From the NCBI GenBank assembly GCA_049517415.1, contig JBEKSC010000005.1:1-64000 (forward strand): a stretch of 64,000 nt of DNA, given 5' to 3'. Each line of letters begins with the position of its first letter. Position 1 is the first letter of the stretch. The notes below the pieces were generated by a model. It had not been told where the DNA came from. It worked only from the letters and a program-made list of their open reading frames with translations, and searched no databases. This document shows, piece after piece, positions 36,392-64,000 of this stretch. The translations under genes were made by a program, and so were the position numbers. The DNA is from Candidatus Bathyarchaeia archaeon. GTDB lineage: Archaea; Thermoproteota; Bathyarchaeia; 40CM-2-53-6.

Positions 36392-36721
36392 TTGTCATGG
36401 AGTGAAGAACGAACAAAGGCTCTCGACGACATTAAGAAGCTTGAGCCTGCCGACCGCTTGGGACTCTACGCTTGTCTAATTCGGATGAATTCAGCGCTTT
36501 TTGAGAGCGTTCGCGGCTGGGACAGCTGGCTGAGAAACCCATCTTTCATTGACACGTTCACCGAGGAGGAATTGAAAGACATTTTCAAACAATTCAAGGA
36601 CGTTTGCCTTCGCTTCTTGGAAGAAGATGTAAAGTGGACTGGAAAGAAAGAGAAGAGCATACCAATGGCCTCCAAAACACCTAAGGTTGAACGTTCTGAA
36701 AGCGAGAGACGATACGCATAA
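36392..36721 (+). CDS. DUF2153-like conserved archaeal protein
   Basis: ADRL...S..GW..WL.NP.....F..EEL pattern. Confidence 0.75.
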   Translation: MSWSEERTKALDDIKKLEPADRLGLYACLIRMNSALFESVRGWDSWLRNPSFIDTFTEEELKDIFKQFKDVCLRFLEEDVKWTGKKEKSIPMASKTPKVERSESERRYA

Positions 36722-39016: not shown

Positions 39017-40021
39017 GTGAACGAAATATCGGAGAATGACTATTCGAAGCATGGCTTGACGAAGGAAATGCTTCACGAAATGCTCCGCAAGATGCTTCTA
39101 CTGAGGAAGTTCGAGGAGAAAGTTGAGGAACTCTTCATGGTAAAAGGCCTCTTAATCGGCCCATCACACCTCTATCTTGGCCAAGAAGCAATCGCGGTAG
39201 GCGCTATGTCAGCTCTAAGGCCAGACGACTTGACGATAACAACGTACCGTGGGCATGGACACGCCCTCGCGAAGGATGTTCCTGCAAAGCTCTGTATGGC
39301 CGAGTTGTTCGGAAAATCTACAGGCAACTGCAAAGGCCTAGGGGGCTCAATGCATGTAGCAATCTACCCCAAGACCGGTTCTTTGTATGCCACGGCGATT
39401 GTCGGGAGCGGAATACCCATAGCCGCCGGCGTCGGTCTCGGCCTAAAGCAACAGAAGAGCGGGAAAATAGCAGCCACGTTCTTCGGGGATGGCGCCTGTA
39501 ACACAGGCTCGTTTCATGAAGGCGTAAACCTAATCGCGCTTTGGCATTTACCCGTCCTCCTCTTCTGTGAGAACAACAAGTACGCTATGTCAACCCCGGT
39601 GGAGAAGGCGGTTTCCAGCCCAAGCATAGCCGAGAGAGCCCATGCTTATGGAATGGAGACCACGGTCGTAAATGGAAACGATGTAGTCTCAGTTTATGTA
39701 GCCGCAAAGAACGCTGCTGAAAGGGCGAGGAAACTTTCTGATCCCACTTTCATCGAGTGTGTCACCTACAAAATGAAGGGCCACGGCGTATACGACAAAG
39801 GCGACTACCGCCCGAAGGAAGAAGTAGCCAAATGGTTAGACCGAGACCCAATTCTCACATTCAAGAGTCGAATGCTCCAACTGGGCCTGTTAACGGATAA
39901 TGAAGTTGTGAAAATGGAGACGGCGGTGAAGCAGGAAATTGAGGAAGCCGTAGTCTTTGCAATGCAGAGTCCCGTTCTGCCGTTCGAGGAAATCAACCAG
40001 TACGTATACGCGGAGAAGTGA
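39017..40021 (+). CDS. 2-oxoacid/acetoin dehydrogenase E1 alpha
   Basis: HLYLGQEA, YRGHGH, GGSMH, FGDG...N.Y TPP motif. Confidence 0.93.
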   Translation: MNEISENDYSKHGLTKEMLHEMLRKMLLLRKFEEKVEELFMVKGLLIGPSHLYLGQEAIAVGAMSALRPDDLTITTYRGHGHALAKDVPAKLCMAELFGKSTGNCKGLGGSMHVAIYPKTGSLYATAIVGSGIPIAAGVGLGLKQQKSGKIAATFFGDGACNTGSFHEGVNLIALWHLPVLLFCENNKYAMSTPVEKAVSSPSIAERAHAYGMETTVVNGNDVVSVYVAAKNAAERARKLSDPTFIECVTYKMKGHGVYDKGDYRPKEEVAKWLDRDPILTFKSRMLQLGLLTDNEVVKMETAVKQEIEEAVVFAMQSPVLPFEEINQYVYAEK

Positions 40022-45251: not shown

Positions 45252-45346
45252 GGGCCCGTAGTCCAGCTGGTTAAGACGTCGCCCTCACATTATCGATGAT
45301 ATGGGAACGGCGGAGATCCCCGGTTCGAACCCGGGCGGGCCCACCA
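45252..45346 (+). tRNA. tRNA-Val(CAC) with canonical 37/38 intron (45290-45307); CCA encoded
   Basis: GGGCCCG acceptor stem, TCGCC-CTCACA[18-nt intron]C-GGCGG, GGTTCGAACCC T arm. Confidence 0.95.
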
Positions 45347-58345: not shown

Positions 58346-58501
58346 TTGGTGGAATGGGTCACCCTTTATTGTGAAAAGTGCAAGGCCGAGACTAAACACA
58401 ATTTAAGTTGGGAAAGGAAAAAACCGATGGTGGGCAAACCTTACCGGGAGGCAACATGCGCGCGTTGCCGGAATCGCACCAAATACTACAAGAGATGGTG
58501 A
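58346..58501 (+). CDS. Basic Zn-ribbon microprotein (51 aa; not in ORF track)
   Basis: MVEWVTLYCEKCKAETKHNLSWERKKPMVGKPYREATCARCRNRTKYYKRW; TTAAAATA at 58301. Confidence 0.7.
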   Translation: MVEWVTLYCEKCKAETKHNLSWERKKPMVGKPYREATCARCRNRTKYYKRW

Positions 58502-58726: not shown

Positions 58727-59704
58727 ATGAACTATAGGCGTCTTGGTAGCGCAGGGCTGAAGATTAGCGAGCTTTCTTTGGGAGCTTGGGTTACGTACGG
58801 AGGCCAAGTCGGCGAAGATGCCGCGCTGAAATGCATGTCTGCCGCCTACGATGCTGGAGTGAATTTCTTCGACAACGCTGAAACTTATGCACAGGGAAAC
58901 GCCGAGAAGGTCATGGGAAACGTACTCAAGAAGATGGGTTGGCCACGTGAGAGTTTCATCGTGTCTAGCAAAGTCTTCTGGGGTGGAGAAGGCCCTAACG
59001 ATAGGGGGCTCTCCCGCAAACACGTCTACGAAGCTTGCCGGAAGTCCCTGAAACGCCTCCAGCTCGATTACCTAGACCTATTCTTCTGCCACCGTCCCGA
59101 TCCGACTACTCCAATTGAGGAAACAGTTCGGGCGATGGACGATTTGGTCCATCAGGGTTTGATCCTATACTGGGGTACCTCAGAGTGGAGTGCAGCTGAC
59201 ATAATGCGAGCCTACGGCATTGCAAGAGAACAGCACCTGACCACGCCGCAAATGGAACAGCCGCAGTACAATATGTTGCATCGGGACCGAGTGGAGAAAG
59301 AGTACATTCCCTTATACCGTGAAATTGGTTTGGGCACAACGATCTGGAGCCCGTTGGCGTCTGGGTTGCTATCAGGCAAATACAACAAAGGCATTCCAGC
59401 AGGCACTCGAGGATCGCTTCAAGGCTACGAGTGGATGCGTGAATTCATTCTCACACCGCAGAACATTGACAAAGTGAAACAGTTGCAACCCATTGCCTCT
59501 GAACTGGGTTGTACGATGGCGCAATTGGCTTTGGCATGGTGCCTGAAGAACCCGAATGTGAGCACGGTAATTACGGGCGCAACCCGACCGGAACAAGTCG
59601 TAGAGAACATGAAAGCCCCAGGGATAGTTTCAAAGCTGGATTCCGAGGTTACGGAGCGAATCGATAAGGTCCTGGGAAACAAACCGGTTATCGAAGAAGA
59701 CTAG
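58727..59704 (+). CDS. Aldo/keto reductase, Kv-beta/AKR6-like
   Basis: [40 protein letters not shown]. Confidence 0.92.
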
Positions 59705-60276
59705 CCCGCTGCAGAGTCGAGAAGTGCACGCAACTTCCTGAAATCCTCCAGCATCACCTCCCTCAAACTGAAGGTGTAGAGGGCAGCAGCGGGGTGGTAC
59801 ATAGGAAAGTACGTCTTTCCACCGACCTCGAAGGGTATACCGTGAACTTCCGTTACGGGGTCATCTGACTTGACTAGTGCATGTATTGCTGAGTTGCCCA
59901 TCGGACAGATTACGCTTGGTTGAATGAGGGCGATCTGTCGTTCAAGGTATGGTCTGCAAGCTGCCGCTTCATCCTTTCTGGGCGGCCTGTTGTTCGGGGG
60001 CCTACACTTCGCAAGGTTCGTGATGTAAACTTCTTCTCGCTTCAGATCTACGGACGCAAGGAGTTCGGTGAGAAGTTTACCAGCAGCCCCAACAAATGGG
60101 CGACCTTGAAGATCCTCTTGCTCTCCTGGGGCTTCCCCGACAAACACCAGCCTCGTCTTTGATGACCCCTCACCGGGAACTGCTTTCTTCCTAGTCTCAC
60201 AAAGCCGGCACTTCCTGCAGGAGACCACTTCGCTTGAGATCTTATCCAGGGAATCTTCGGTTTCCGTCGAAATCAC
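59701..60276 (-). CDS. udg: Family 4 uracil-DNA glycosylase
   Basis: C..C.LC, GEAPG, PFVG.AG, KCRPP.NR, HPAA. Confidence 0.95.
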
Positions 60277-60383
60277 ATCCGGGTGAGTTGGATTGCGCTT
60301 ACCGGAATTTTGTTAACGCACGGTATATATTCCTCTTTTTAACTTATCGGTACGGTGTATAATAGCGCAGACTACTATGCGGC

Positions 60384-60545
60384 CTACCATTCGAACGGAC
60401 ATACCGGATTCTCGCATTGATGTAGCCCCGCATGTCCCTTTTCTCGCCCGCAAATATGCTCCTTGTGTAGGCCAGCAATGGCTCCGCATTTCTCCGCTTT
60501 CTCACGCCACGAAGTTATAGTTCCTGCTGCTGGGATATCTGACAA
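60384..60545 (-). CDS. Cys/His-rich microprotein (53 aa; not in ORF track)
   Basis: MSDIPAAGTITSWREKAEKCGAIAGLHKEHICGREKGHAGLHQCENPVCPFEW; GGTGA upstream of TTG. Confidence 0.65.
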   Translation of the reverse strand: MSDIPAAGTITSWREKAEKCGAIAGLHKEHICGREKGHAGLHQCENPVCPFEW

Positions 60546-60550
60546 ATTCC

Positions 60551-60697
60551 CTACTCACCCTCATGGAGTGGCAGACCGCATTTAGGACAAATCGCAATAT
60601 ACACAGGCCCTTGTCTCCCATCAGGTAGCCTGACATATTCCCCGAACCACGCCGGATAATCGAATTCCTTTTGGCATCCAAATACACAAAGCACCAT
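60551..60697 (-). CDS. CPxCG Zn-finger microprotein (48 aa; not in ORF track)
   Basis: MVLCVFGCQKEFDYPAWFGEYVRLPDGRQGPVYIAICPKCGLPLHEGE; GGTGA six nt upstream of ATG. Confidence 0.7.
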   Translation of the reverse strand: MVLCVFGCQKEFDYPAWFGEYVRLPDGRQGPVYIAICPKCGLPLHEGE

Positions 60698-61055
60698 CTT
60701 CTATCACCACAAAGAGAACCCCAACGGGATTGGGTATAAGTCTTGTCACCTAACTATCGACCTAAATTAGCCTTATTTTGCTATAGAGATACGTGAAAGC
60801 TATTTTGTTTGCCAAAAGAAGGTAAGTTTGGCCTATATATGACTAAAGGAACAAGAAAAGCATACGAGAAAAAAATGAGTTACTACTACTGTATATGTAT
60901 TCGTATATAATATAATATAGGTATTGTACTTGGATGGTAGCAAGTAGCTAATGGAATATGGCGAGCAAGATGTTGCGAGCATATCAGTATATCAGATTGC
61001 AGTGATATATGATATTATATATTATTGTTTCTTAATTGATTAGATGTATTCCGCC

Positions 61056-61114
61056 GCCCCCCCTTCGGGGCCTCCAAAAATGGGGGGGCAGTATAATGAG
61101 GATTTGGGGGGGCA
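61056..61114. repeat. GC7 / G7C inverted repeat plus a TGGGGGGGCA direct repeat
   Basis: C7 at 61057-61063; TGGGGGGGCA at 61081-61090 and 61105-61114, inside AT-rich non-coding DNA. Confidence 0.8.
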
Positions 61115-61380
61115 TAACCGAATAACCAATTTAGAAAGGCATAAAGCTATAATTTTCTATACTATTCTGTCTAAAACTATTAAAGTGCACTACATGGTAT
61201 AGCGACAGCCTCCATATATAGAGAGTAGAAGGATATAATCATAATTAGGCCAAAATTCGACGATATTAATAAATGCGGCAATCTGCACGCAAATAAGAAT
61301 CATATAATGATAATCTGAGACATATAGAGTAAATAGAGACTAATATGAGATGATTACATATATTAGTAGGGGGCCATAAG

Positions 61381-61728
61381 TTGGAACAATACATATTCAA
61401 GCAACTGAATGATAAATTAGATATCATAGACCTATTGCTCTACGATAATTGGAGTATAGGAAGATTTTATGCTTGCCCCAAATGCGGGGCCAGAGGCAGA
61501 CTAGGCATGGGAAAAACCCCTCGCTATGGTGTGTACTGTGTATACATGCTTCATCATAACTCAGAGGAATGTCACTTAGGAAGATTTGACTTGAGAGCAT
61601 TGGGCCCTGAGAAGTTAAGGGACAATGCGAGGAAAATAACCACTATCATAAAGACTAGAAGAGCAGAGCGACTAAATAAGAAAAATAATATCGAGAGATT
61701 GATAAATGGAAATAAAGATGAAACTTAG
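61381..61728 (+). CDS. CPKCG-type Zn-finger protein of the kind seen in archaeal viruses and plasmids
   Basis: CPKCG..G.L...Y.Y..H....C.LG pattern and basic C-terminus. Confidence 0.7.
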   Translation: MEQYIFKQLNDKLDIIDLLLYDNWSIGRFYACPKCGARGRLGMGKTPRYGVYCVYMLHHNSEECHLGRFDLRALGPEKLRDNARKITTIIKTRRAERLNKKNNIERLINGNKDET

Positions 61729-61798
61729 ATATAGAGCACATAAAAGAGGTATATTATATCATATATTACATAGAGGCAAGCATAAACATGAAAGATAA
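61718..61798 (+). CDS. 26-aa basic His-rich micro-ORF
   Basis: MKLRYRAHKRGILYHILHRGKHKHER; overlaps both neighbours by 11 nt. Confidence 0.4.
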   Translation: MKLRYRAHKRGILYHILHRGKHKHER

Positions 61799-61934
61799 GC
61801 CATTAATAACAAAGGCTGAAAGAGAACTTCTAGCTAAACTTAAGGATAAAATGTATAGCCCTAAAGATAAGAAAAAGTTGGAAAAGTTAGAGGATATATA
61901 TGAAGAAAGCAGTACGGAAGAAGAAGCCCGATAA
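61788..61934 (+). CDS. 48-aa charged helical microprotein
   Basis: MKDKPLITKAERELLAKLKDKMYSPKDKKKLEKLEDIYEESSTEEEAR. Confidence 0.6.
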   Translation: MKDKPLITKAERELLAKLKDKMYSPKDKKKLEKLEDIYEESSTEEEAR

Positions 61935-62019
61935 AGCAAAAATGAGTAATTCAACTATTGACCACTTCTATAATAGCGTAATATATACCGATGATAATGA
62001 GTATAGTAATAAAGATTAA
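61900..62019 (+). CDS. 39-aa micro-ORF
   Basis: MKKAVRKKKPDKAKMSNSTIDHFYNSVIYTDDNEYSNKD; GAGGATATAT before ATG. Confidence 0.45.
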   Translation: MKKAVRKKKPDKAKMSNSTIDHFYNSVIYTDDNEYSNKD

Positions 62020-62032
62020 GAGATAATATAAT

Positions 62033-62278
62033 ATGAATCCTTTAAACTACTCCCAAACGGCAACACTAGCTAATTCGCAAGCAAGAGCATCTGTTGCCAG
62101 TGCCACATCTAGCGCCGCAAATAGCCCCAATGCTTCGGTCAATCAAGGGACGAGCAAAACTACAGCCGCATTGTCCGGTGCAAGTGTTACCAATAAGAAT
62201 CCGAGCACAGGTACAACCTCAAGCAAATCGCTCAGTGCCGCTAGTGGCTTCACACAAGGCGGTTTCTACGGAGAATAA
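62033..62278 (+). CDS. Ser/Ala/Thr/Asn-rich low-complexity hypothetical protein
   Basis: 81-aa ORF preceded by AAGAGATAATATAAT. Confidence 0.65.
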   Translation: MNPLNYSQTATLANSQARASVASATSSAANSPNASVNQGTSKTTAALSGASVTNKNPSTGTTSSKSLSAASGFTQGGFYGE

Positions 62279-62313
62279 AACGAATACAATTAGCATATAA
62301 GGAGTGATATATA

Positions 62314-62463
62314 ATGACAACATATTATACTGATACAACATATACAAGCGCAAGAGAAATGCAAGCGGCCATAAATGCTATGGATACATCAGTAACAACC
62401 ATAGTATTTATTTTCAAAGGCGGATTGGCGGATTTTCACCTAATAACAATGCCAGCAGCATAA
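62314..62463 (+). CDS. 49-aa microprotein
   Basis: MTTYYTDTTYTSAREMQAAINAMDTSVTTIVFIFKGGLADFHLITMPAA; AAGGAGTGA RBS. Confidence 0.65.
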   Translation: MTTYYTDTTYTSAREMQAAINAMDTSVTTIVFIFKGGLADFHLITMPAA

Positions 62464-62497
62464 CCTATGATATATTAATAATATAAGGAGATGATAT

Positions 62498-62599
62498 ATG
62501 ATGGCACATCCAGATACAGCAACCGTTGACCGTGTTGTTCCTGAAAGACGTAGACGAAGGCAATATGCACCTGTCAACAGTTATAATCTAACGAGTTAA
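62498..62599 (+). CDS. 33-aa microprotein with an Arg5 run
   Basis: MMAHPDTATVDRVVPERRRRRQYAPVNSYNLTS; AAGGAGATGA RBS. Confidence 0.55.
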   Translation: MMAHPDTATVDRVVPERRRRRQYAPVNSYNLTS

Positions 62600-62651
62600 T
62601 TATTATAGTTTTATACTATAAATATATAATATAAAAGGAGATGAATATCAT

Positions 62652-63338
62652 ATGAATGATATAAAAGAACAAATGCAAAAAGATAAGAAAGACAGACTAT
62701 TAAGACAGACTAAGAGTGAATACCACCTCGACCAAGGTTTAGACCAAACTAAATTTGCTGGTCAGCCAAATGGTTATATTAGCGAATCTACCAACAACCC
62801 CAATCCCGTATTAGTAAGCCATAGCATTATCGAAGCTAAAGAGGATAGAGTTAAAGACATGTTGGCAAAAGAGGCTATGAATAAGAAAATAGCAATACAA
62901 GAAGCATATAATGACTATAGTACACCTAATACCATTATGGACACGGGACAGCATGTAGATTTGGCTTATGGACGGTCTAAAGCTCCAAATGATAGGGGAT
63001 TTAAACATATTTCAGACAGTACACGTAGATATGCACAACCTAAACTTATAAAGAACATACTACAAGGCCATGCATCTATATACTATTGCACAAGCCATGA
63101 TGAGATATTAGGATATAACAATAGGTCAGTATTTGATAATAGACTACATACAAAAGAAACGCATTGTGAAGTAATGAAACTATCTGATGCACAAATACTA
63201 TCAGAGTTCCCAGAAATTCGAACCCTCTTGGCAAACATTAACAGCCTGAGTACGAATTTGAGTGTAGCGCAGCCAAGCTCCAATTCCGACATATCGGAGT
63301 CAGGATGCTATAATCCCCTTAAGCGGAAAAGAGCATAA
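62652..63338 (+). CDS. Hypothetical protein (228 aa)
   Basis: Long ORF with AAGGAGATGA RBS; no recognisable motif. Confidence 0.75.
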   Translation: MNDIKEQMQKDKKDRLLRQTKSEYHLDQGLDQTKFAGQPNGYISESTNNPNPVLVSHSIIEAKEDRVKDMLAKEAMNKKIAIQEAYNDYSTPNTIMDTGQHVDLAYGRSKAPNDRGFKHISDSTRRYAQPKLIKNILQGHASIYYCTSHDEILGYNNRSVFDNRLHTKETHCEVMKLSDAQILSEFPEIRTLLANINSLSTNLSVAQPSSNSDISESGCYNPLKRKRA

Positions 63339-63365
63339 ATTCCCTATATTTTTTAATATATAGGT

Positions 63366-63395
63366 AAAATAACGCAAAATAATGCGAAATAAGGT
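63366..63395 (+). repeat. Three imperfect 10-bp tandem repeats
   Basis: AAAATAACGC / AAAATAATGC / GAAATAAGGT, directly before TATATAAAA. Confidence 0.6.
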
Positions 63396-63417
63396 GAGTA
63401 TATAAAATAAAAGTTGC

Positions 63418-63459
63418 GGTATGGAGCCTTATGCATCCCACGGCATAAGACTCTGTACC
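63418..63459 (+). other. 16-bp stem-loop upstream of the nuclease gene
   Basis: GGTATGGAG/CTCTGTACC (two G-U pairs), C.A mismatch, CTTATGC/GCATAAG, 8-nt loop. Confidence 0.7.
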
Positions 63460-63488
63460 AATACATTAATCCATATAGGTGTGTCTAT

Positions 63489-64000
63489 ATGAACAGTAGT
63501 ATATATAGTAAGAACGGATATATAAATATATCGGACAGACATAATAGACGTTCCAAAGGAGCATACTTTGAACGTATAGTATATGACTTTTTATATGATT
63601 TAGATAATAAAGAATTAATACATAATCAATTTAATGATAAGATAGCTGATATTATATATAAAGATAATTATATTGAATGTAAGAATTGGGAGAATACGAC
63701 TAACTTAACTGGCTTGCTCATAGCTACTCAGATAACGCCCAAATTTAATGACAGCAAAAACAAGCACCGGATAGCCCTATTCAAGAATAAGATGAACCTA
63801 ACCCGTAAGGCTAAAGACTTGCTCGCCAAGCACAACATAGCGTACATGGCTTGGGACACATTCAAAGCATGGATTAGAGCTAAGATTAAACCAAAAACAG
63901 CCAGTTTAAGGCAGGTCATTTACCGTAGCTATAATGATAGATACAGTAGATGTAATAGCAATGATGGACAGCCTGCGTATGGTATGGCTAACTGTGATAG
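63489..64000 (+). CDS. PD-(D/E)xK nuclease (Hjc/restriction-endonuclease-like), truncated by the window end; not in ORF track
   Basis: MNSSIY...RRSKGAYFERIVYDFL...IADIIYKDNYIECKNW; no stop before 64000; AGGTG upstream. Confidence 0.8.
   Translation, partial: MNSSIYSKNGYINISDRHNRRSKGAYFERIVYDFLYDLDNKELIHNQFNDKIADIIYKDNYIECKNWENTTNLTGLLIATQITPKFNDSKNKHRIALFKNKMNLTRKAKDLLAKHNIAYMAWDTFKAWIRAKIKPKTASLRQVIYRSYNDRYSRCNSNDGQPAYGMANCD

Follow-up and report, generated by a model that had tools for sequence, protein, structure and literature searches.

The DNA analysed here (the window) is the first 64 kb of the 97.7-kb contig C5 (JBEKSC010000005.1) from the 2.65-Mb genome of a Candidatus Bathyarchaeia archaeon, and the contig numbering continues that of the window. 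At its right edge lies the left half (60329..64000) of what is almost certainly a complete integrated element of 7,282 bp, spanning contig 60,329-67,621 and bounded by two identical copies of the 11-bp direct repeat ATTCCTCTTTT, the left attachment (att) core attL at 60329..60339 and the right core attR at contig 67,611-67,621. The left flank, outside the element, is the host uracil-DNA glycosylase gene udg (59701..60276, minus strand; Pfam UDG, E=8e-37), and the right flank is the host gene rpl40e (contig 67,656-67,820, plus strand), assigned by Pfam. The attL core overlaps the end of a TATA-like box common to udg and rpl40e. Immediately inside it, the left inner arm (60340..60368) forms an imperfect inverted repeat with the arm at the right end, one 8-mer occurring in both, and these arms are likely binding sites of the recombinase or of an accessory protein. 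An earlier annotation of the letters alone (the sequence-only reading) had set a boundary at 60330, almost exactly at the att core, and had proposed a search for a direct repeat at this left end; the repeat is there, 11 bp long, with its second copy 7,282 bp away.

Base composition delimits the same segment. The guanine plus cytosine (G+C) content of 60330-64000 is 37.2%, and 35-38% per kb, compared with about 50% in the host, and the element is the sole stretch of the 2.65-Mb genome with 2-kb intervals below 41%. The sequence-only reading was correct about the drop but not about its depth of about 30%, a value reached only in single 200-bp intervals; the first 350 bp are at 45-51%. On the right side, G+C climbs back to about 50% near 67.6 kb, where rpl40e and further host genes resume. 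A large provirus extending rightwards is therefore ruled out. No 20-mer is common to the element and the remaining host genome, and there is therefore no self-spacer against the element. The metagenomes that contain it come from peat, wetland and soil.

The flanking genes of related genomes reveal the site before insertion. A survey of rpl40e searched 41 genomes, 34 of which matched, and fetched 30 loci (29 foreign, 18 congeneric). Comparison of the udg locus in relatives, as the sequence-only reading had recommended, uncovered the empty site: 17 of the 18 congeneric loci have udg and rpl40e side by side in divergent orientation, the contig of the 18th stopping 126 bp upstream, and none of the 29 foreign rpl40e loci has a match to the family integrase. 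In two relatives (G014 and G018) both flanks of the element align with an 11-bp overlap and nothing in between.

An assembly chimera or contamination could produce an abrupt composition shift of this kind, and the contamination estimate of the genome is 6.9%; the sequence-only reading had itself raised a chimeric contig. This explanation is refuted by the contiguity of the flanks in relatives with the 11-bp duplication, by other assemblies that span the junctions and by the presence of element proteins on a 1.58-Mb contig, and we assign it a negligible probability. Of the twenty sequencing runs that contain 96% or more of the sampled words, 15 were flagged as possible source runs and four were examined in detail. 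In run X2, a possible source, one 17.4-kb contig extends across both junctions. Runs X15, also flagged, and X17 and X20, not flagged, each yield a single continuous piece of 7,481 bp that shows 0 differences and reaches 166 nt across attL and 22 nt beyond attR, the latter overhang being below the 31-nt bar for bridging. Exact element proteins occur on up to 47 public contigs, of which the 1.58-Mb contig is the longest. Contig depth over the element is similar in magnitude to that over host pieces with exact matches, depth being no measure of copy number.

The target of the insertion is a promoter. The att core comes directly after a conserved TATA-like box in the divergent udg/rpl40e promoter, such that after insertion udg retains the box while rpl40e is separated from it. 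The right end of the element brings in a similar box 55 nt before the rpl40e ATG, compared with 50 nt in the empty arrangement, and this element-supplied box may act as the rpl40e promoter. No tRNA gene was found at the element boundary by ARAGORN, which may miss intron-bearing archaeal tRNAs; this agrees with the sequence-only reading, which had seen no tRNA att site and had suggested a non-canonical insertion. That suggestion applies to the target, a promoter and not a tRNA gene, but not to the anatomy, which is that of ordinary site-specific integration, with a tyrosine recombinase, an 11-bp repeat and an empty site.

The recombinase gene itself (contig 66,142-67,359, minus strand; 398/405 aa) lies 2 kb past the window end, and the statement of the sequence-only reading that no integrase is present thus holds for the window and fails for the element. 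The 405-aa open reading frame (ORF) received no Pfam, PHROGs or NCBIfam name. Its structural model, with a predicted local distance difference test (pLDDT) value of 91.5, displays the core-binding and catalytic fold of the tyrosine recombinases and matches XerH, integron integrase, XerA and Tn1549 Int; 25 Foldseek matches have E<=0.001, those listed all being tyrosine recombinases, with whole-chain template-modelling (TM) scores of about 0.3-0.4. The Atlas ranking placed PF00589 clusters at 0.98, with several near clusters being archaeal, most commonly from Bathyarchaeota or Nitrososphaerota. The att core lies about 250 bp upstream of the intact gene and not inside it; a suicidal integrase of the SSV type, in which the gene is split, was ruled out on these grounds.

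The active site departs from that of other tyrosine recombinases. The key residues are R191-K192, H264, R288-G289-H290 and Y299, among which the catalytic K192, H264, H290 and Y299 are all present, while the box I arginine of XerA (5HXY) aligns with a glycine in a profile alignment and the HxxR motif reads HVLV. A residue table of family members comprises 112 rows, 110 of them distinct, each 280 aa or longer, with 18 shorter representatives and broken loci excluded. The first-site arginine occurs in 0/112 rows, R191 and K192 each in 107/112, H264 and Y299 in all 112, and the HxxR arginine in 108/112. The four rows without the latter are the query, P0001 and P0005, which gain an arginine just before GH, and P0063, which has neither; an R288-type arginine before GH is found in 0 of the 108 rows that retain the HxxR arginine. 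The fragment P0006 carries the identical arginine swap, and P0001 is 52% identical to the integrase. In quick trees the query, P0001 and P0006 form one clade and P0005 lies elsewhere, and one common origin for the four proteins with the swap was rejected by the approximately unbiased (AU) test (p=0.0104), which was run on a quick tree of 25 hand-chosen rows after the first tree had been seen. By this test, the swap arose at least twice. Several integrases of a clade found at an A/V-type ATPase site, described below, have, at the position of R288 in the query, a lysine that may be an intermediate.

By analogy, R191 and R288 may stand in for the canonical arginines. The model is IntCTnDOT, in which, according to the available part of the source, the first catalytic arginine is absent and a downstream arginine takes its place (PMC8138268). 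As portrayed there, that enzyme belongs to conjugative elements of Bacteroidetes and has an arm-binding domain; the present family differs from it in the family-wide loss (0/112), in a candidate substitute positioned right before the catalytic lysine and in a subclade that moved the second arginine (PMC8138268).

The same residues can be read in another way, in which the element is a grounded remnant whose integrase is dead, or at most a DNA-binding repressor, and which is fixed because loss of the right end would silence rpl40e, or moves only by means of a sister integrase. Both arginines are gone from their usual places, HxxR having become HVLV; no circle was found among contig joints and no replication (Rep) gene was recognised; and the main element pieces are identical across the four runs examined. 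YopR, a catalytically altered repressor, is among the fold matches of the integrase, but at rank 44. Against decay, the integrase ORF is unbroken, each att core is perfect, H264, H290, K192 and Y299 are retained, and the M/V-for-R replacement together with the new R288 is kept in P0001 and P0006, which are about 50% diverged, with a separate origin in P0005. Fixation is not forced, because precise excision would restore the host promoter. We consider a grounded remnant quite unlikely.

The integrase belongs to a family for which 90 representatives were found. A single-query search found relatives in 12 of the 105 genomes searched from the order, all within the family of the host, and a profile search found them in 35 of 301 genomes of the class; the host genome encodes three sister integrases. 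Close integrase loci were found neither in viral contigs nor in genome contigs nor in phage records. Both ends could be mapped for eight family elements of 4.2-10.3 kb, none of which has a tRNA gene at its locus and seven of which sit in promoter regions or first codons. In L056 (4,223 bp) and L069 (9,246 bp) the core is the B recognition element (BRE)/TATA-like box of the uL15-secY promoter, a hotspot at which six distinct elements occupy eight loci (L056, L068/L069, L074/L082, L075, L080 and L081). L060 (9,699 bp; L060:1126-10832, G000:C1) and L063 (8,149 bp; L063:8836-17009, G003:C2) lie within the first codons of a gene for an F420-dependent oxidoreductase, whose N-terminus each element encodes again, in near-identical form, at its far end. 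L067 (10,262 bp) lies upstream of a gene that we take, from its motif, to be metK-like, L087 (8,279 bp) lies beside a TATA-like run, and L062 (6,901 bp; L062:8662-15572, G000:C2) lies at the 3' end of a Nudix gene. Plasmid-type primpol or Cdc6 is encoded in the sisters L067, L069 and L070, and no virion family was detected among the 66 and 42 sister-element proteins scanned.

Several further observations concern these relatives. L062 apparently supplies a new C-terminus to the Nudix gene, and one of its ORFs is nuclease-like with an ECKNW motif. The third sister is L061 (G000:C18, with its right end near 36,525), and its zinc-protein end resembles that of the C2 element, with 73% DNA identity over 300 bp. 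In L089, L091, L092, L094 and L095 a recurrent site is seen at which the integrase start abuts a membrane-protein gene behind an A/V-type ATPase operon. In L057 (L057:8679-11237, G066:C30) the integrase match lies inside an 852-aa open frame that also contains a host-gene-like stretch, possibly through fusion or read-through.

A second host promoter is present inside the element. At 61148..61189 (plus strand), facing the rightward genes, is a 42-bp copy of the host nrdJ promoter block, composed of an upstream conserved 24 bp and a BRE/TATA-like 18 bp. When the cargo DNA was compared with 58 genomes of the family, this block was the sole shared stretch, present in 12 of 22 congeners, where it lies upstream of the class II ribonucleotide reductase gene nrdJ and downstream of queC. 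The element copy differs from the host block at 5/42 positions, while the best of 500 dinucleotide shuffles has 14 mismatches, and the only two genome sites within 12 mismatches of the block are the host copy and the element copy. Among 13 host copies the block varies by 0-2 bases while the flanks diverge; the element match coincides exactly with this near-invariant block, and similarity ends at its upstream edge. The mismatches are distributed unevenly, with 4/24 in the upstream 24 bp and 1/20 in the BRE/TATA part. The leader 3' of the copy, to about 61235, retains faint similarity to the host copy (z=3.5; 0/500 shuffles) that falls short of significance against 9 of the 14 compared rows, and the leader folds no better than shuffles (z=0.15). 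A faint leader beside a kept core suggests that the block was captured and that selection then maintained the core. Measured against the 13 host copies of its own clade, the element copy has 4-7 mismatches, compared with 13-16 against the nine copies of the next genus; this closeness to the version of its own clade indicates that the element has long been adapted to this host clade. The block lies within what the sequence-only reading described as a roughly 680-bp non-coding region; the gap measures 683 bp (60698 to 61380) but is not featureless. Its proposal that the left end and regulatory region of a foreign integrated element are in view is supported.

Beyond this locus, block copies additional to that of nrdJ were found among the 105 genomes of the order only in a variable region of G014 that has few matches to the present genome (L122, G014:C3 about 39,250-39,370), where a 180-aa ORF is preceded by a nearly perfect second copy together with its leader and some of the upstream flank. 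Eight congeners (L162-L164, L167, L168 and L170-L172) have an entirely different nrdJ promoter, with 21-23 mismatches and in most cases still between queC and nrdJ, an instance of promoter replacement within the genus. One of the 12 records with the nrdJ promoter motif (L149) is titled bacterium and is possibly a mislabelled archaeal bin. The motif has 0 occurrences in viral contigs. A sigma-70 scan gave chance-level results, the model being unsuited to archaea.

The regulator acting on this block is probably not NrdR, since NrdR was not found in the host and its boxes do not fit. NrdR (TIGR00244) has no match in the host genome, while the control was positive in 10 of 14 genomes, and comparison by eye shows one box-like stretch that lacks G13, with no second box 15-16 bp away. 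NrdR was rejected as the regulator for want of both the protein and paired 16-bp boxes. As the available text describes NrdR boxes, they too make up a conserved, AT-rich stretch ahead of a gene for ribonucleotide reductase, but they are paired and accompanied by NrdR, whereas the present host has no detected NrdR and the block no second box (PMC13584703). In Halobacterium, from a different archaeal group, nrdJ is reported in the part of the study at hand to be among four genes induced at every ultraviolet (UV) dose tested (PMC2556686). By this analogy, a coupling of element genes to the demand for deoxyribonucleoside triphosphates (dNTPs) is plausible.

The copy need not be a working promoter, however, even in a mobile element. 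It could be a decoy that, when the circle is multicopy, soaks up the regulator and raises the dNTP supply with no reductase gene in the element, or an att relic of an ancestor that resided at nrdJ, readings that overlap with the other alternatives. The upstream 24 bp, a possible operator, is also kept (4/24 mismatches), and about 190 nt separate the copy from the next ORF, as a decoy would allow; for a relic speak the re-encoding of displaced host sequence by L060 and L063 and the leader and upstream flank that accompany the second copy in the variable region of G014. On the other hand, the copy faces the operon and its BRE/TATA part is the best kept (1/20), it lies 800 bp inside the element and not at an end, and a neutral remnant would be expected to decay as the leader has. 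Nor does nrdJ appear to be an integration hotspot, as 0 of 30 nrdJ loci have a family integrase match within 1.5 kb. A decoy or relic is, in our estimate, rather improbable.

The remaining genes of the element are small and anonymous. Leftward, next to the left inner arm, are the two micro-genes noted in the sequence-only reading, a 53-aa Cys/His micro-ORF with a TTG start (60384..60545, minus strand; no family) and a 48-aa CxxxC...CxxC zinc-ribbon-like micro-ORF (60551..60697, minus strand) with a sub-threshold zinc-ribbon match (E=0.09), each with a GGTG(A)-type ribosome-binding site (RBS). They are followed by a cluster of G/C tracts (61055..61113), consisting of a C7...G7 stem and a T-rich G7 tract and assigned to repeat family D3. 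Three of the 18 TTTG6+ sites of the genome are inside the element, and G7 tracts after T/A runs also occur at contig 64,076-64,086 and 65,310-65,320; these repeats are perhaps a candidate origin or operator.

Rightward, the first credible gene 3' of the promoter copy encodes a 115-aa basic CxxC protein (61381..61728, plus strand), an ORFan with a Lar-like zinc-finger lead (E=0.07) for which a search of 5.8 billion proteins returned its own cluster only. It is followed on the plus strand by a 48-aa charged micro-protein (61788..61934), called on 44 public contigs and a single-member cluster; an 81-aa Ser/Ala/Thr/Asn-rich low-complexity protein of no family (62033..62278); a 49-aa protein (62314..62463), the most hydrophobic of the element with a maximal Kyte-Doolittle hydropathy (KD19) of 1.38; a 33-aa Arg-rich micro-protein (62498..62599); and a 228-aa ORFan (62652..63338) with an uninformative single-sequence fold (pLDDT 46), no homologue at E<=0.1 among 193 candidates and no relative in viral contigs. 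The last three have strong AAGGAG sites. The gene at the window end (63489..64000 in the window, ending at contig 64,361, plus strand) encodes a 290-aa PD-(D/E)xK-like nuclease with an ECKNW motif. Leads for its assignment are weak, namely an Atlas Mrr/PD-DExK score of 0.87 with TM<=0.44, a RusA-like PHROG match at E=0.02 and a weak pairwise similarity (E=0.005) to the nuclease-like ORF of the C2 sister element; no clear relatives were found in 300 other genomes of the class, in viral contigs or in phage records. Beyond the window lie a 135-aa ORFan (contig 64,701-65,108, plus strand), a 106-aa basic protein (contig 65,763-66,083, minus strand) with a weak AbiEi match, a candidate directionality factor by its position, then the integrase, and finally a protein of about 85 aa with a CxC..C..CxCxC..H pattern (contig 67,325-67,582, minus strand). 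Homologues of the latter are found in 17 of 47 family loci, and a small CxC..CxCxC..H protein is encoded directly upstream of the integrase in 15 of the 47.

This inventory trims the account given by the sequence-only reading, which counted at least nine rightward ORFs with mostly ATG starts and AAGGAG-type sites. Seven are credible in the window, nine being reached only with the doubtful 61044-61202 and 61900-62019; six of the seven start with ATG, but only three have an AAGGAG-type RBS. Its zinc-finger and nuclease ORFs are present (61381-61728 and the PD-(D/E)xK-like gene), on weak leads. Public gene callers had called the 115-, 48-, 49-, 228- and 290-aa products, and the exact 81-aa and leftward 48-aa sequences are absent from that protein collection. 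The proteins were scanned with Pfam, PHROGs, NCBIfam and PADLOC, not every micro-ORF in each library. No significant Pfam, PHROGs or NCBIfam match was obtained for the scanned proteins, no ATPase family was found among the element ORFs, and no capsid, packaging, membrane, conjugation, transfer or casposase gene was recognised among them. A BLASTP comparison of all element ORFs with their own genome and the fetched loci returned no cargo homologue, and an Rfam scan of the element no credible RNA. The sequence-only reading had pointed to the adjoining DNA as the place to look for an integrase, a capsid, a terminase, a packaging ATPase and Rep; of these, the integrase was found and the others were not recognised.

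These data bear directly on whether the element is viral, as the term provirus in the sequence-only reading implied. It might be the provirus of a small unknown archaeal virus or satellite, in which the 81-, 49-, 33- and 228-aa genes would serve the virion or helper hijacking and the nrdJ promoter would be the induction switch. The element is indeed AT-rich and packed with ORFans, its leftward micro-genes point away from a rightward operon, three genes have strong AAGGAG sites, and cryptic integrated elements (CIEs) in general might be novel viruses or plasmids, as the available part of one account puts it (PMC6563490). However, the scanned proteins lack any significant match in Pfam, PHROGs or NCBIfam, no packaging ATPase was recognised, and no segment exceeds a KD19 of 1.38, while the capsid proteins of spindle-shaped viruses have two hydrophobic helices according to the accessible text (PMC10848311). 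The integrase, nuclease, 228-aa protein and promoter motif have no relatives in viral contigs, and none are found in phage records. At 7.3 kb in total, with no virion family, no strongly hydrophobic helix and sisters that encode plasmid-type replicases (primpol/Cdc6), a provirus, be it of the Caudoviricetes, DJR, spindle-shaped or pleomorphic kind, is not supported, and we regard it as unlikely.

The data presented above have led us to favour, with moderate confidence, a cryptic, non-viral, complete element that resembles an integrative plasmid and would operate as follows. A circular form would recombine through the 11-bp core beside the bidirectional TATA box between udg and rpl40e. The udg gene would keep its promoter, and rpl40e, cut from the TATA box, would receive a substitute from the right end of the element. 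The same AT-rich box, read in the opposite direction, would drive the genes for the metal-binding protein, the integrase and the 106-aa protein. The integrase would be active through a rebuilt pocket, with R191 replacing the first arginine and R288 the HxxR arginine. The rightward operon would be turned on from the captured, selection-kept nrdJ promoter, and the element genes would thereby be expressed while the host makes dNTPs, during replication or upon DNA damage. Replication and spread probably depend on host or helper functions, because no Rep, helicase or transfer gene was recognised. A broader proposal, which we put forward only tentatively and would not expect to hold in full, is that the element lineage exploits core promoters in two ways: by integrases with both catalytic arginines relocated, which insert at TATA boxes or first codons of housekeeping genes and restore the displaced sequence, and by a captured nrdJ promoter that in the present member serves as dNTP sensor and, when multicopy, as decoy, in an element with neither reductase nor replicase.

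Several observations weigh against the favoured model. With regard to mobility, the canonical pair of box I and HxxR arginines is missing and the protein is not a canonical RKHRHY enzyme; neither an excised-circle joint nor a same-strain empty-site joint was found among the contig joints of the four runs, a weak negative because contigs drop rare forms; and no primpol, MCM, Cdc6, rolling-circle Rep or helicase gene was recognised in the library scans, although a Rep is possibly hidden among the ORFans. With regard to the promoter, the first credible ORF starts about 190 nt 3' of the copy, NrdR was not matched in the host, and other TATA boxes in the AT-rich region could drive the rightward genes. 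No cargo protein has a clear relative wherever searched, and their functions are therefore guesses. As to the family, the att cores of L067 and L087 are direct repeats alone, lacking a clean empty-site alignment, and one tree clusters the integrase with those of the uL15 site while a later tree does not. Seven mapped sisters have 46-52% G+C compared with 36-38% here, and the AT-richness is therefore a trait of the present element itself.

Among described systems, the closest counterparts of the element are the CIEs of Thaumarchaeota. It has a flanking direct repeat with an empty site, an integrase and no recognisable virion, conjugation or casposase genes, and as such fits the working definition of a CIE in the available part of the source (PMC6563490). 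As reported there, thaumarchaeal CIEs range from 2.6 to 98 kb, share the integrase as their sole conserved gene, lack virion and conjugation genes, have short att sequences (down to 8 bp, median 17), include relatives with primpol and Cdc6, and use non-tRNA targets, with 15 intergenic sites and 14 gene 3' ends out of 68 (PMC6563490). The present element differs in its Bathyarchaeia host and in a family preference for core promoters and first codons, the coding targets of thaumarchaeal CIEs described there being 3'-distal; the available text makes no mention of absent catalytic arginines or a captured host promoter (PMC6563490).

Mobile genetic elements (MGEs) of Atabeyarchaeia such as Yucahu-i are likewise similar in the portion of their description at hand, with a wetland archaeal host, sizes of 10.9 kb and 7.8 kb, an 11-bp AT-rich att and a tyrosine-type integrase closest, among others, to Bathyarchaeia proteins and adjoined by a junction-resolving nuclease (PMC11529989). 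Nine bases of the Yucahu motif recur by eye at the left end of the present element, which may be chance (PMC11529989). Yucahu has a superfamily 3 (SF3) helicase and an abundant circular form (PMC11529989), neither of which was found for the present element. Integrases of the SSV1, pNOB8, SNJ2 and pTN3 types share the tyrosine recombinase fold, and pTN3-like elements also provide the promoter of the gene that they hit (PMC8371274). As far as the accessible text goes, the SSV1 and pNOB8 types retain R...xXXR...Y, and tRNA genes contain most of the archaeal sites, with non-tRNA targets also known; genes of the SSV type are split on integration, in contrast to the present integrase gene (PMC8371274). 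In the open-access literature (main texts, not supplements), no description of the integrase family, the arginine pattern or a captured reductase promoter was found.

Three features of the surrounding host DNA were recorded in passing. A 43-56-bp repeat outside the element (C5 about 67,850-67,900, after rpl40e; L001:12857-12900) has about ten more copies in the genome and the look of repetitive extragenic palindromic (REP) or miniature inverted-repeat transposable element (MITE) sequences. A tRNA-Ser(CGA) at 45252-45346 of the window, with an 18-nt intron if introns are allowed, has no relation to the element. On the host side, 58346-58501 encodes a 51-aa two-CxxC zinc-ribbon micro-protein, just upstream of an aldo-keto reductase gene, with a weak DUF7835 match.

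A small cryptic integrated element belongs to a known class, and the novelty here is in the details: the promoter copy, the active site and the targets. Such elements are probably under-counted, because Pfam misses most proteins of the family (10 of 35 aligned members match PF00589 at E<=0.01). An intact host nrdJ promoter within a mobile element suggests how a minimal replicon could read the replication or damage state of its host, and the 42-bp block would be a cis-element for the reductase regulator of an archaeon in which no NrdR was found, usable as bait if this is true. A recombinase family that lacks the box I arginine, and in which the second arginine appears to have moved at least twice, constitutes a natural experiment on an active site supposed to be fixed. 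Finally, insertion at the promoters of ribosomal-protein genes may provide defined att sites for archaea with few genetic tools.

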